Source of the DNA: Enterobacteria phage GiZh
Sequence record: NC_054903.1
Reading direction: 5' to 3' (one strand)
Length of the DNA stretch: 64,000 nucleotides
Program-made: the position numbers and the translations under genes
The notes under the pieces: model-generated
What the model was told of the DNA's origin: nothing
The model's input: the letters and a program-made list of their open reading frames with translations, nothing else
Databases searched by the model: none
Shown here: positions 42,594 to 57,172 of the stretch, in pieces
Layout of the letters: the number at the start of each line of letters is the position of its first letter
Position numbering within the stretch: position 1 is the first letter of the stretch

Positions 42594-42968
42594 TCAATTT
42601 TTTTTTACACATGAATTATAAGAATTCACTACATACTCCATCGGAGCATTTTTACCAGTACGCCATTGGTAATTATTAGCCCAATTAGCCCAAATTTCGG
42701 CGCAGTAGTTTTCAATTTTTTCTTCGCGTGTAATTACATCAGAATTACGATATGCTTGAGCAGATTCATCTGGACGAATAGCTTCGTCAAAATTCGCCTG
42801 CATTTGTTCTACTGTTTGCTTTGGAGCTTCTTTATAACACTTGACATTAGGATTATAAAATTTGCTTGAACAGTTTACAATTTTTCCTACACCAGACTGA
42901 TTTACTACCGGTCCTTGAGCTACACAACCAGTAAGACCTAATGCAATAACCAAAATAGCGATTTTCAT
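42594..42968 (-). CDS. lipoprotein (124 aa)
   Basis: signal peptide with lipobox LTGC. Confidence 0.55.
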   Translation of the reverse strand: MKIAILVIALGLTGCVAQGPVVNQSGVGKIVNCSSKFYNPNVKCYKEAPKQTVEQMQANFDEAIRPDESAQAYRNSDVITREEKIENYCAEIWANWANNYQWRTGKNAPMEYVVNSYNSCVKKN

Positions 42969-42978
42969 AATAATTTCC

Positions 42979-43215
42979 TCAAATGCAAGTAGTAATTACT
43001 CCAGTAGTGCTTATGCAGGTATTACCCATTTGCACACCTAAAGATCCATTTGTATTCACATGAAGATTATCATCAATTTTAACTGATATTTTACCATTAG
43101 TGTGAATAACGGTGCTAGATTCAATCACAGGTTGAGTATCATTTTCAACACTAACAAATGGAACTGCTGCTAATGCAACTAAACAAACTGCTAAGCATCC
43201 CATAACAATTTTCAT
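42979..43215 (-). CDS. secreted/envelope protein (78 aa)
   Basis: signal peptide; start at ATG with GGAGAA RBS. Confidence 0.5.
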   Translation of the reverse strand: MKIVMGCLAVCLVALAAVPFVSVENDTQPVIESSTVIHTNGKISVKIDDNLHVNTNGSLGVQMGNTCISTTGVITTCI

Positions 43216-43398: not shown

Positions 43399-46095
43399 TC
43401 AGCCAAACAGGAAGTCTAACGAAGCTTTTTCTTCATAGTCCATACCAGCCGATTCACACATGCCTGCAAGCGGTTTAACAAACGATTTTTGGAACAAAGT
43501 TGAGTAGTCAATCCAAGACAATACGTCAGAACGAATTTCTTTTGGAAGTTCTGTGCCCGACGGCCAAGCAATGCACTTGTCACCAAATGGATTTCCTTCA
43601 CGCAATGGAAGAACCATTACTTTATTTCCATCCAAAATTGGAGCTACACCTAAACCGTTAACAGCTCGACGATAAGTTAGCACACCACGAATATGGAACG
43701 GGCATTTAAATCCTGGCCAACCTTTATCATCATATTTCGCTATATCGTTCGCAGTTTTTACTTCAGCGATAACTTTATAGTCAAGTTGACGATATTCTTT
43801 CTCGAAGTTCTTGTAGTATTCTTGAACAGACTCTTCACCTTCCTGAAGAATACGACGAATACTTTCTTCGAGTGCTTCTTGCACTGCTTTTGGTGTTGAA
43901 CTCTGCTGAGTTTCCATACCCATGATTTTTAGATGCGGTTCAGCAAATCGCTTATCTTCCATATCATAAACGTTCAGAGCATAACGCTTTTTCGCTTTCC
44001 AAAATCCGCCAACGCCCTTTGAACCAAGTGGAGGGCAAGAAATAGCTTCACGGTCCATATGCATCAGATGCTCGCGGTTATTCATATAATCACATAACTC
44101 ACGATATGCAACATCAATCATAGGTTCCATCTTTTTCTTACCGAATTGATTCATGAATTCAACTAAATCGTTCTGCTCTTTGAATCGGTCAAGACCAACT
44201 TTTTCAATAACTTTATCTACACAAACATATACCGAATCAGTATCACCTGCTGCGATGAAATCTTCGCCATTAGTTCCACATACTTTATTCAGATACTCAT
44301 TAATTTTACGAGCAATCCACTGAATACCAACTTGACCAAAAATTGTGATAGCAGTAGCATTTCGCAAATCATAGTAACGGAAATGAATGTTACCAAGAGC
44401 ACCATAAAGACTATTAATAAGAATTTTACGGTTCAGCTGATTTGTGTTAGCAAGTGTAGCTGCTTTTTCACATTCTTCAATCAAACTATTGAGAACAGAT
44501 TCAGTATAATTCGATAGTTCATTTAAGAAATCATCACTGAACTTAACATATCGTTCAACTTCAGGTTTAGTTGAACAAGACCCTGCGCCTTTCATAATAA
44601 TCTTTTTAATAGCTTCGGCATTCATTTCTTCAGCGAACATTTTCTTTTTCCAATCTTTACGCTGGAAAAATACTTTAGCGATTTCCTTTGGAATGATACC
44701 TTCTTGATGCTTATCGTACATCCATCCATTCGGAGAACAAGAATATTCATCACTCGGTTTAGGAGCTGTTCCTGCGATATATTCATGAATTGGATGAACT
44801 TTAAACTGCCCACGAATAGTCTCAGGACTAATGTTAACCTGACGAATAATGCTCGGATACAGAGACGTCAAGTCAAAACTCATAATATATCGACGAGCAA
44901 TTGGTTTAGGTTCAAACACAAATGCACCCGGAAAACTCTGTTTAACATGCGAACCTTGTTGAGGAATAACCTTATGTTCACCTTTCAATGAGTTAAAAAT
45001 AATAGCATCCCAGGTTTTAATAGGACTCATTACACCAGAAAAAGGCATTTTAGCGTAATAAGACATACTTAAAACTAGATCGATAAACCCGCGGATTTTA
45101 TCAATTGCTTGAACTGATTCTACGTCAATGATGTTATAACTAATGTATCGTTGATGATTAGTCTCACGAAGTTTATTAATAGGACCGTCGTATGGTAATT
45201 TACCTTTTTTGGTTTCATGCTGAGCAACTGATTCCAAAGAGAATGACGGCAAATTAGTAAATGCGAATTTCTTATACAAATCTAAATAATCAAGAATAGA
45301 TACGCCATCAATAGAATAAATTTCTTTGCTACCGTACATATTTTGGATAAGTTTAGATTTTACTCGACCGATTGGAGAGAAGCGTTTCATACTACGTTCA
45401 CCGAGAACCATTTTAACGCGATTCATGATATACGGAACGTCAAATCCCTCAATATTCCAACCAGTAAAAATAGCAGGTCGTTTCTGTTCCCAAAGATTGA
45501 TATATTCCATGAGCATATCACGCTCGTTATCGAATGGCATATAAATTACTCGGTCAAGAATTTCTTGAGGAACTTCATCACCACCTTCACAGTCAAGCTT
45601 AGCAGCTAACTTTGCATCCCATTTTGATACTGAACCGTACATTGAATTCAAAAGGTCGAAAACATAAAAACGGTCATCAATTGAATCGTAATGAGTGATA
45701 GCATCAATTTCATATTCTGCTTTCATTGGGTCAGGAAATTTATCACCAGTAACCTCAATGTCACAGTTAGCTACACGAACAAATTTTCGGTCATAAACAA
45801 TTTCTGAACCATATGTATCACTGATATAAGCGAGTTTAAAATCGTTCATACCGAGAGCTTCGAGACCGATGTCTTCCATTCGCTTCATCCAGTCTCGAGC
45901 ATCTTTCATTGATGGAAATTTTTGAGGAGCGCAATTTTTACCATAGATGTCTTTGTATTTTGACTCTTCCTTACAATGTCTAAACATAGTTGGAAGATAT
46001 TCTACTTCACGAGTACGTTCCTTTCCGTTTTCATCAATATAACGTTCAACAATGTTATTTCCGACTGTTTCAATAGAGATATAAAATTCTTTCAT
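43399..46095 (-). CDS. 43: DNA polymerase gp43 (family B)
   Basis: 898 aa, same as T4 gp43; exonuclease and polymerase motifs. Confidence 0.95.
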   Translation of the reverse strand: MKEFYISIETVGNNIVERYIDENGKERTREVEYLPTMFRHCKEESKYKDIYGKNCAPQKFPSMKDARDWMKRMEDIGLEALGMNDFKLAYISDTYGSEIVYDRKFVRVANCDIEVTGDKFPDPMKAEYEIDAITHYDSIDDRFYVFDLLNSMYGSVSKWDAKLAAKLDCEGGDEVPQEILDRVIYMPFDNERDMLMEYINLWEQKRPAIFTGWNIEGFDVPYIMNRVKMVLGERSMKRFSPIGRVKSKLIQNMYGSKEIYSIDGVSILDYLDLYKKFAFTNLPSFSLESVAQHETKKGKLPYDGPINKLRETNHQRYISYNIIDVESVQAIDKIRGFIDLVLSMSYYAKMPFSGVMSPIKTWDAIIFNSLKGEHKVIPQQGSHVKQSFPGAFVFEPKPIARRYIMSFDLTSLYPSIIRQVNISPETIRGQFKVHPIHEYIAGTAPKPSDEYSCSPNGWMYDKHQEGIIPKEIAKVFFQRKDWKKKMFAEEMNAEAIKKIIMKGAGSCSTKPEVERYVKFSDDFLNELSNYTESVLNSLIEECEKAATLANTNQLNRKILINSLYGALGNIHFRYYDLRNATAITIFGQVGIQWIARKINEYLNKVCGTNGEDFIAAGDTDSVYVCVDKVIEKVGLDRFKEQNDLVEFMNQFGKKKMEPMIDVAYRELCDYMNNREHLMHMDREAISCPPLGSKGVGGFWKAKKRYALNVYDMEDKRFAEPHLKIMGMETQQSSTPKAVQEALEESIRRILQEGEESVQEYYKNFEKEYRQLDYKVIAEVKTANDIAKYDDKGWPGFKCPFHIRGVLTYRRAVNGLGVAPILDGNKVMVLPLREGNPFGDKCIAWPSGTELPKEIRSDVLSWIDYSTLFQKSFVKPLAGMCESAGMDYEEKASLDFLFG

Positions 46096-46135
46096 AGATA
46101 TTCCTTAGTTTATAGCCCGAGTTATTAGGCTCTTG
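46096..46135 (-). promoter_or_regulatory. gene 43 translational operator hairpin (GAGCC-UAAUAACUC-GGGCU) plus SD
   Basis: matches the T4 gp43 autoregulatory RNA hairpin with loop AAUAACUC followed by AAGGA and AUG. Confidence 0.65.
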
Positions 46136-46153
46136 ATATATTATACTCCAAAT

Positions 46154-46171
46154 AAGGGGCCGAAGCCCCTT
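46154..46171 (-). terminator. hairpin (GGGGCUUCGGCCCC) between the 73-aa ORF and gene 43
   Basis: perfect UUCG-loop stem; weak U-run; TATAAT follows on - strand. Confidence 0.4.
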
Positions 46172-46173
46172 GC

Positions 46174-46395
46174 TTAAATTAGTACTATTTGTCGGTGAAA
46201 AATTGTCATTCCATCTGCATTAATTGACTTAACGACTGCAGTAAAGTGTTTTTGTTCTGGGTGAATTAATTTTTGAAATTCTACCTGAAATTTTAGTTGA
46301 AGGTTTTCTGGTAAATCGAAAAGTGTTTCTGTTGCAGAAAGATTATATTTTTCTTTAAGAGACGCCATGTATTCTTGTGGAGTTATAGCAGTCAT
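46174..46395 (-). CDS. hypothetical protein (73 aa) between regA and gene 43
   Basis: ATG overlaps regA stop region; ORF-track 87-aa version overlaps regA. Confidence 0.45.
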   Translation of the reverse strand: MTAITPQEYMASLKEKYNLSATETLFDLPENLQLKFQVEFQKLIHPEQKHFTAVVKSINADGMTIFHRQIVLI

Positions 46396-46396
46396 A

Positions 46397-46765
46397 TTAA
46401 TTACCAATCGTATATTTAGGAACGAGTTTCCATTCATGTTTTTGTTTAAAAGAAATAACTCGGAAGTTATTAGTTAAATCTTTCATAAAAGTTCTTTGAC
46501 CAGGAACGATTTCAATCAGCCCCCAATCTTCTAACAACCATGCAATCGAATCACGACGAACTTCATCTTCTTCTGTCATTTCAACTTGACGACCATCCAT
46601 ACGAAGCATTTCTTTAAAATGAACGATATAGTATAGTCCTTTTTTCTGAAGAATATGACAGGACTGATACAGAACTTTATCTTTATTATTAGCAATTCCC
46701 ATACGAGTCAAAGTTTCTTTTACTTTCAGAAAATCTTCAGGTTTTTTAAGAGTAATTTCAATCAT
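46397..46765 (-). CDS. regA: translational repressor RegA
   Basis: 122 aa; sequence recognised. Confidence 0.85.
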   Translation of the reverse strand: MIEITLKKPEDFLKVKETLTRMGIANNKDKVLYQSCHILQKKGLYYIVHFKEMLRMDGRQVEMTEEDEVRRDSIAWLLEDWGLIEIVPGQRTFMKDLTNNFRVISFKQKHEWKLVPKYTIGN

Positions 46766-46766
46766 T

Positions 46767-47330
46767 TTACCATTCCAATGCTAGTTTTTTGAGTTGTTTC
46801 TGTTCTTTTACGTTCTTAGTCACTTCTTTCAAAAAATCATCCGTGACTAAACCTTTTAGTTCTTTTAATACTAAAGGAAGTTTTCCATTTTTAGTAAGAA
46901 TTGATTTATAGTTAATTGCATCATTTGTATTAACTTGATACCGCTTAGCAATTAACTTAATAATCAATACTTCGGTGGAATCTTCAACTAGTTTTGCCCA
47001 TTTACCATATCTTTTACCACGAGGAACTGCAGCCATTAGATAATTAAAATGAGCTTCATCACTTAAGCCTGATCCAATTAAATTCATAGCATATACAGCT
47101 GGCATGCACTCTGGAAATTGTGATAATGCATTTTCAACCATGAATTTTGAATAATCTTTTTGAGCAATAGAGCATTTAGTTTTATTATTAATAGCTCCAA
47201 TTATTTCAAAAAACTCATTTTCAGCTTTTTCTTTAAAAGAATCAGCAGCGGATTGGACAGCTGTCCAATCTTTTGAATACCAAGCAACTTGATGCTCGTT
47301 TAATTGAATATCATCTTCAAATAAGCTCAT
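46767..47330 (-). CDS. 62: clamp loader small subunit gp62
   Basis: 187 aa, same as T4 gp62. Confidence 0.85.
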
Positions 47331-47331
47331 A

Positions 47332-48291
47332 TCACTTCCACTGCATTTCGCATGCTAATTGAATGAAAAGATATGCTAAATGTAATTCCGTATTAGCCGC
47401 AATTCCATGATACTGGTTATTTTCACCAACAATTTCATACATACGAATAATACTTTGCGGAGTTACGCGTGTATAGATTTCTTCGGCAAGTTTACCAACG
47501 AACCACGAATAATCAGCCGCATATTTTGGTGCTAAAGCTCTGAGTTGTTTAACATCTTTATTTTTGAGAGACTCAAGAACATCATCAATAGCACCACGAT
47601 CGTTAGTAACCAGTGATAAAATACCAGCATCCAAAACACCTTTAGACGAATAACTATCGAGCTCGCCAATAGTTTTACGAAAATCAGGAAAATTCTTTTT
47701 AACCAAAGCTGCTACAACTTTCATATCAGCTATAGCAATTCCTTCATGCTTACAGATTTCAGTCAATCGACGAATCATCTGCTTCATCATTTCAATTTTA
47801 TCTTCATCGGTTGGTTGACCGAACGTAATAACTCGGCAGCGTGACTGAAGTGGTTTAATAATACCATCAATATTGTTAGCAGTAATAATAATACTACAGT
47901 TTGAACTATAAGCTTCCATAAAGGAACGAAGATGTCGCTGAGACTCTGCTAACCCTGAACGGTCAAATTCATCAATAACGATTACTTTTTGACGACCATC
48001 AAATGAAGCTGCACTAGCAAAATTAGTTAAAGGACCACGAACGAAATCAATTTTACAATCTGACCCATTCACAAACATCATATCAGCATTTACATCATGA
48101 CACAATGCTTTTGCTACAGTTGTTTTACCTGTTCCTGGAGAAGGAGAATGAAGAATAATATGTGGAATCTTACCTTTACTTGTAATAGATTTAAAGGTTT
48201 CTTTATCAAAGGCGGGAAGAATACATTCATCGATAGTAGATGGACGATATTTCTGTTCAAGAATGTGTTCTTTTTCATTTACAGTAATCAT
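47332..48291 (-). CDS. 44: clamp loader ATPase gp44
   Basis: 319 aa from ATG with GAGGAAA RBS; Walker A GTGKTT. Confidence 0.85.
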
Positions 48292-56412: not shown

Positions 56413-56631
56413 TTATTTCTCTAATATAAAATAAAAATCATCATCTGTTAAATGATACCTGTAATTTAATTCTACACCATTAGATTTAAAAGCGGTATCA
56501 TACGGATTTTCTGGATCAATATCAATGTCAAGAGCTAAAACTTCCCTGAGATACATTTTAAGCAAATAGGGAATAGCTTCAACTTCAGGTATTTCTTCCA
56601 AGAATCCGGAGAGGTTAATCGTTAGCCTCAT
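56413..56631 (-). CDS. hypothetical protein (72 aa)
   Basis: ORF. Confidence 0.5.
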
Positions 56632-57172
56632 ATAAAAAATCCAAACTAGGAGAATCGTCTACAACACTTTTCTTTTCAGCCCCCGGTGTTCTATAGGTTG
56701 ATTCTTCGTAATGCGTCATTTTATCGTAGATGTCTTGAATAAAAGTTTCATCTACTAACGCAACCATATCGTCGTCACGACTGTCATAGACATTGTGAAC
56801 GAAGTAACTATATTTCTTTGCAACTTCCTTACGTTCTTTTTTAATACGCTGGACGAATGCATTAAAACAAGCTTGAGTTATATACGCATGTGGGTTTTTA
56901 TATTTCGTTTCATCAAAATTATGAAGCCCCTTAATAGAAGCTTCTATACCATCTGCAATCATTTCTTGTTTCCAAGACTGGGTGTATCCTGAAAAGTTGA
57001 AACGTTTAGATAAGCCTTCTGCAATAAGCATAATGGCTAATCCGATAGTATCATTCTGACGAACTACTTTATTTGGGTCTTTATTATTTGCTAATTCTGT
57101 TTTCCAATCAATAATAGCTTGTAAAAGCTCTTTATTGTTTACGTAATTATATTTAGGCTTAGTTTCTGACAT
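56615..57172 (-). CDS. 55: late-transcription sigma factor gp55
   Basis: 185 aa from ATG with AAGAGGTGA RBS; sequence recognised. Confidence 0.9.

Follow-up and report, generated by a model that had tools for sequence, protein, structure and literature searches.

The 73-aa open reading frame (ORF) between regA and gene 43 of Enterobacteria phage GiZh is orf43.1, an already-known optional accessory gene and not an unrecognized novelty, and it is very likely that the junction as a whole is a T-even-type regA-43 junction that carries this optional gene in its RB18-type allele. The window, that is, the whole stretch of DNA that was analyzed, comprises 64,000 nucleotides of sequence record NC_054903.1. 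An earlier note, made from the letters of the window alone, had pointed to a 73-aa ORF between regA and the gene 43 operator, and the ORF is indeed there, on the minus strand. Its product matches Pfam family PF25760 ("Phage RB18 ORF43.1 protein," Phage_RB18_ORF43) over profile positions 1 to 69 of 69, at 105.9 bits (E = 9.6e-31) against a curated gathering threshold of 27 bits, and it matches phrog_3826 at an E value of 5e-38. Its position is also that of a PF25760 member, between regA and gene 43, and relatives are laid out likewise. The closest named counterpart is gp43.1 of phage RB18 (recorded as "gp43.1; 43.1"), a protein 100% identical to that of the window, with the same slot, length, and start context; at the DNA level the two genes differ by a few synonymous changes (pS 0.065, pN 0). 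The variable orf43.1 was reportedly first described by Miller and Jozwik (J Bacteriol, 1990). The full-text literature that was searched, including the 2010 Virology Journal reviews, contained no mention of orf43.1.

An 87-aa version of the ORF, starting at position 46437 inside regA, was rejected, as homologues align only from the ATG at 46395 and the annotations all use 46395. Family entries of 85 to 127 aa do occur (P0001, from Escherichia phages KK4 and GADU22; P0011, P0013, and P0014; and positions 2884 to 3201 of L007). The extra length probably reflects gene callers that picked an upstream ATG inside regA and is unlikely to be a genuine N-terminal extension.

The surrounding locus, the regA-43 junction, is of the T-even type (Tequatrovirus), with the minus-strand order 45-44-62-regA-(ORF)-43, as in T4. 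In a search of phage records, the junction was 100% identical to that of Shigella phage SHBML-50-1. By blastn, the DNA of regA is ~98% and that of gene 43 ~97% identical to T4, and gene 43 is labeled "DNA polymerase" in all matching records. Positions of the features discussed below are collected in Table 1.

Table 1. Features of the regA-43 junction and related elements (window positions unless a locus is named)
Feature	Position	Strand	Basis or remark
regA, translational repressor, 122 aa	46765..46397	-	Pfam PF01818, E = 1.2e-74; PHROG 242
regA stop TAA	46399-46397	-	sequence; 1 nt ahead of orf43.1 ATG
Spacer T, single nt between regA stop and orf43.1 ATG	46396	-	sequence
orf43.1 (gp43.1), 73 aa, very likely the RB18-type allele	46395..46174	-	Pfam PF25760, phrog_3826
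orf43.1 start ATG	46395	-	sequence
orf43.1 stop TAA	46176-46174	-	sequence
223-nt segment without counterpart in T4, T2, T6	46396..46174	-	alignment, blastn break points
C(UUCG)G tetraloop hairpin AAGGGGC-UUCG-GCCCCUU, perfect 7-bp stem	46171..46154	-	predicted fold
GGAG, between UUCG hairpin and -10 box	46149-46146	-	sequence; same in T4
TATAAT, -10 box of gene 43 promoter	46145-46140	-	sequence; same in T4
Gene 43 translational operator hairpin	46131..46114	-	predicted fold; same in T4
Gene 43 Shine-Dalgarno AAGGAA	46106-46101	-	sequence
Gene 43, DNA polymerase, 898 aa; ATG at 46095	43399..46095	-	ORF list
gp55	56615-57172	-	C-terminus carries clamp-binding tail motif
Compared locus, L004	1789-1880		
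Compared locus, L007	3195-3285		
Compared locus, L015	4216-4324		
Compared locus, L012	3195-3302		

The ORF is conserved in relatives, and a homology search recovers the PF25760 family from RB18 to CkP1. When the 451-nt junction was used as the query, 176 of the 503 phage records that matched it (about a third) carried the RB18-type orf43.1 nearly unchanged, counting as RB18-type those records in which at least 80% of the query was covered; the remaining records cover ~52%. Among the matches listed, the span is 228 nt and empty of any ORF in T4, T2, T6, RB6, and RB27, and it is ~477 nt in RB51/RB32, FelixPlatter, UFV05, and PYps55T, where it contains another allele. Homologues were found by tblastn in 309 records, with identity below 60% in 133 of these. 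When 1.84 billion representative proteins were scanned exhaustively with an HMM, only 7 clusters emerged, and a profile search of 5.8 billion proteins returned 31 clusters at 90% identity, all of them PF25760; every named cluster among the 31 was a T4-like phage or an E. coli-labeled record or contig. The orf43.1 family is thus small, confined to T4-like enterobacterial phages, and always located between regA and gene 43. Diverged alleles (33 to 47% identical) occupy the same slot in RB51/RB32, the JS98 group, CkP1, and others, the most distant member being that of Citrobacter phage CkP1 (33% identity), and the slot is also filled in a JS98-like genome and an Enterobacter phage. Structure comparison adds Edwardsiella phage PEi26 (23% identity, TM 0.81) and VR25.

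Judged by its pattern of substitution, orf43.1 genuinely encodes a protein and is subject to purifying selection. Between alleles, synonymous divergence is saturated (pS 0.6 to 0.8) and pN is 0.35 to 0.45; dN/dS is 0.10 to 0.28 in the closer pairs, ranges from 0.10 to 0.52 overall, and does not exceed 0.55 in any comparison. An alignment of 22 sequences displays a conserved core, LK..YGL...Q.(L/V/I)FDL.E..Q.EFQ...P...F....G....R..E, in which five columns are invariant and ten nearly so. An AlphaFold2 model of gp43.1 built on a 9-sequence alignment (pLDDT 88.2, pTM 0.71) predicts a helix at residues 6 to 16, a loop with a short turn at 25 to 27, a second helix at 30 to 44, and a beta-hairpin formed by residues 50 to 58 and 64 to 72. 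The protein is small and near-neutral (8.5 kDa, pI 6.3), and catalytic-looking motifs or enzyme-like features were not found in it. A profile search of gp43.1 against the PDB gave no match below an E value of 0.65, a BFVD structure search returned family members only and no structural or functional analogue, and PADLOC, queried for defense and anti-defense functions, gave no match. Given this near-neutral charge, the lack of catalytic-looking motifs, and the lack of an informative functional match, we take gp43.1 to be, as a best guess, a dispensable binding or modulator protein that is produced together with the proteins of replication.

A more specific role would be that of a hypervariable host-interaction or anti-defense protein whose allelic diversity reflects an arms race with host factors. 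Such a role would account for alleles that are 40 to 45% identical inside flanks that are 95 to 99% identical and for the presence/absence polymorphism of the gene, and orf43.1 is small, non-essential, and of early or middle expression, like many genes of this class. However, none of the comparisons gives a dN/dS as high as 1 or hints at diversifying selection, neither PADLOC nor any other family link connects gp43.1 to such functions, and its strictly conserved position in a replication operon would be unusual for a host-takeover gene. We regard this interpretation as unlikely and retain that of a dispensable binding or modulator protein.

We compared the junction with that of T4 (NC_000866), which the earlier note had supposed to lack an ORF at this position. 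The alignment agrees: T4 has no ORF at the site, and its regA stop is followed directly by GCAAGGGGCTTCGG, so that the order past the stop is GCAAGGGGCTTCGGCCCC...TATAAT...operator...ATG. Over the 78 nt that precede the gene 43 ATG, from the hairpin on, the two phages do not differ by a single base; this region abuts the regA stop in T4, whereas in the window it abuts the orf43.1 stop, with the same TAA-GC-AAGGGG spacing. The 223-nt indel runs from the regA stop to the orf43.1 stop and has the edges ...GGTAATTAA / T ATG...AATTTAA / GCAAGG. A TTAA microhomology is present at both of its borders, and the blastn segments overlap by exactly these 4 nt.

As to how the two states are related, the reading of the ORF as an insertion probably had the direction wrong. 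Several genera carry the gene in this slot, which makes its loss in the T4/T2/T6 lineage the more parsimonious history, and the T4 state most likely arose there by a 223-nt deletion between two TTAA stop contexts. The alternative is that the coding segment alone was gained in an RB18-type ancestor by illegitimate recombination. The TTAA microhomology fits either direction, T4-like genomes are mosaics in which small ORFs come and go at gene boundaries, and a second small-ORF example lies 3 kb away. Gain nevertheless appears quite improbable, given that diverged alleles sit in the exact slot in the JS98 group, CkP1, and an Enterobacter phage and, by structural similarity, in PEi26, and that ancestral presence followed by loss needs fewer events. 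Beyond the deletion that we favor for T4, the alleles themselves may have been swapped by homologous recombination in near-identical flanks; by blastn, the Tequatrovirus flanks are 95 to 98% identical whatever the orf43.1 allele.

The second small-ORF difference from T4 is a 78-aa ORF just downstream of gene 43 (42979-43215, minus strand). It has a signal-peptide-like N-terminus (MKIVMGCLAVCLVALAAVPF...) and matches phrog_4189 but no Pfam family. The insertion point coincides precisely with the start codon of an imm.1 homologue (DUF5481, 42594-42968); in T4, gene 43 and imm.1 are separated by no more than a 183-nt gap. The edges of this indel are an 8-nt direct repeat, ATGAAAAT, with which both ORFs begin, in the same codon-boundary style as the orf43.1 indel.

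The most conserved stretch of gp43.1, TLFDLPE, with the pattern (T)(L/V/I)FDL(P/S)E at residues 24 to 30, resembles both the clamp-binding C-terminal tail of RB69/JS98-type gp43 (A-S/T-LFDMFDF) and the clamp-binding tails of T4-type gp43 and gp55 (SLDFLF/Y), a motif that also ends the gp43 of the window (SLDFLFG). A combined clamp-motif pattern matches only gp43, gp55, and gp43.1 in the window, and this pattern was written after the motif had been seen. If gp43.1 were a ligand of the sliding clamp (gp45), a role with which its location inside a clamp, clamp-loader, and polymerase operon would be consistent, it could modulate the access of polymerase or late transcription to the clamp. We consider such a role very doubtful: in the predicted structure the motif is internal to a confidently folded region and not a free tail, and phages without orf43.1 replicate normally.

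The ATG of orf43.1 follows the regA stop after a single nucleotide (TAA-T-ATG), and the only Shine-Dalgarno candidate is a weak GGU. Other lineages keep a tight junction, in the form of TAA-T-ATG, TGA-T-ATG, TAA-T-GTG, or an overlapping stop and start. Given this spacing, the poor Shine-Dalgarno, and the retention of the geometry elsewhere, orf43.1 is probably translated by termination-reinitiation coupling to regA. Such coupling is not universal; the RB51 type is an exception, with a 10-nt spacer and its own AAGG Shine-Dalgarno. The start region of orf43.1, AAUUAAUAUG, is A+U-rich, with the AUG inside it and an embedded UAA. Targets of RegA are described as unstructured and A+U-rich, taking in the AUG or lying just ahead of it, often with an upstream UAA (PMC3014915). 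The stretch GGUAAUUAAUAUGACU agrees with this broad description and is similar to the dexA site, AAAAUUUAAUGUUU, and to a SELEX sequence, AAAAUUGUUAUGUAA (PMC3014915), although the RegA consensus is too weak to discriminate. Repression of orf43.1 by RegA is plausible on the strength of this resemblance.

The weak Shine-Dalgarno, the lack of a known function, and dispensability in T4 might also be taken to mean that orf43.1 is untranslated, a noncoding spacer or RNA element whose frame is fortuitous. This is highly improbable: alleles that are saturated at synonymous sites hold 40 to 47% amino acid identity at the same length and in the same frame, dN/dS is 0.1 to 0.5, columns are conserved across 22 sequences, the fold is predicted with confidence, and Rfam gave no family match between 45900 and 46900 at E values up to 1.

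Two bases beyond the orf43.1 stop begins the UUCG hairpin. The perfect hairpin and the TATAAT that had been described after the ORF are both present. The hairpin is conserved in 10 of 10 diverged loci, with 100% of cells paired. Within GGGGC-UUCG-GCCCC the closing C-G pair is invariant, and the stem shows the compensatory changes expected around a C(UUCG)G tetraloop; stem position 4, for example, is G-C in Tequatrovirus, A-U in the JS98 group, and C-G in CkP1 and L012. The record of phage e11/2 labels this hairpin "terminator." A consensus scan of positions 45800 to 47400, with an intrinsic terminator defined as a G+C-rich hairpin directly followed by at least 5 U in 8 nt, called no terminator; the scan skips the UUCG hairpin because its tail is UUAUUUGG, which has no canonical U-run. 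We suggest that the hairpin serves as the 3′ end, a stabilizer, or a weak terminator of 45-44-62-regA(-43.1) transcripts. Neither this hairpin nor that of the operator corresponds to any curated family in Rfam.

Between the hairpin and the operator lie the GGAG and TATAAT motifs. The endoribonuclease RegB cleaves at GGAG motifs between genes, and its processing activity is reported to stimulate the synthesis of gp43 (PMC3014915); judging from the motif, the GGAG of the window may be the processing site behind this stimulation. No sigma-70 -35 partner was found for the TATAAT, and no full sigma-70 promoter was called on the minus strand. The record of phage fPS-2 annotates a "predicted middle promoter" at this site. 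A MotA box in the standard register was rejected: the candidate GGCTTCG, within the hairpin, is separated from the -10 box by 15 nt, too great a distance, and for this reason we do not claim a verified middle promoter.

The earlier note had suggested that the hairpin and TATAAT may be the insertion's own terminator and promoter punctuation, a reading that fails on comparison with T4, where both are likewise present and equally far from a TAA stop. None of the signals from the hairpin to the Shine-Dalgarno (the GGAG, TATAAT, and operator included) falls within the 223-nt indel. Since the hairpin and TATAAT are outside the indel and identical in T4, they are resident T4 signals. In other genera, too, the 43.1 allele is followed by the UUCG hairpin and TATAAT. 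That a foreign cassette was inserted into a T4-like junction with its own terminator hairpin and promoter, as the absence of the ORF from T4 and the position of both elements directly 3′ of it might suggest, is therefore scarcely credible: these signals, with GGAG and the operator, are identical in T4 beyond the indel, phages with no ORF retain the hairpin, the same arrangement recurs in other genera with covarying stems, and the segment holds only the 73-aa ORF, with no nuclease, recombinase, integrase, or homing-endonuclease features, no terminal or other repeats, and no cassette-borne signals, between borders that are stop-codon microhomologies.

The description of the gene 43 operator as intact and T4-matching holds over all 78 nt up to the ATG. 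The hairpin itself stands, but not the register first given for it, GAGCC-UAAUAACUC-GGGCU; instead, the predicted fold has a 5-bp stem, AGCCU/GGGCU, and an 8-nt loop, AAUAACUC, that contains UAAC, and it is contiguous with the gene 43 Shine-Dalgarno and AUG. The T4 operator has been described as an 18-base hairpin with a -UAAC- loop (PMC3014915), and the hairpin of the window is identical to it in sequence and matches that description. Since the operator is identical and gp43 near-identical to those of T4, we infer by analogy that gp43 binds its own operator RNA and represses its own translation. In CkP1 the operator stem covaries (GGUCU/GGACC) and the loop stays AAUNACUC.

As a separate observation, the loops of some relatives are variants that do not correspond to the UAAC loop on which work in T4 and RB69 has centered. 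These are AAUCACUC in the JS98 group, on a 4-bp AGAC/GUCU stem, AAUGACUC in CkP1, on the stem given above, and AAUUACUC in L012, on an AGCCU/GGGCU stem.

Altogether, these features are consistent with a scheme in which orf43.1 would be transcribed on polycistronic 45-44-62-regA messages that the UUCG hairpin ends or stabilizes. Most of its translation would come from ribosomes that, having terminated at regA, reinitiate 1 nt further on, so that the output of orf43.1 would follow that of RegA, and the A+U-rich start region would itself be a RegA target. Gene 43 would be expressed from its own promoter and repressed by gp43 acting on the operator, exactly as in T4.

For orf43.1 itself, the finding matters little beyond correct annotation. 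The junction illustrates how T-even genomes gain or lose single small genes at stop- and start-codon microhomologies while dense regulatory signals are left undisturbed; here, 78 nt pack a terminator-like hairpin, a RegB motif, a promoter, and an autoregulatory operator. Among the named alleles, that of RB51 (ORF050; RB32ORF047c in RB32) encodes 78 aa, is labeled "similar to RB18 43.1," and is 45% identical to the window's protein over 62 residues; it differs from the window's allele in an extra 5-residue N-terminal insertion and in having its own Shine-Dalgarno 10 nt past regA. JS98 orf47 and its relatives represent a 71-aa allele in the same slot. The RB32/RB51 and JS98 alleles thus share with that of GiZh the slot, a similar size (71 to 78 aa), and a common conserved core, although they are only 40 to 45% identical to it.
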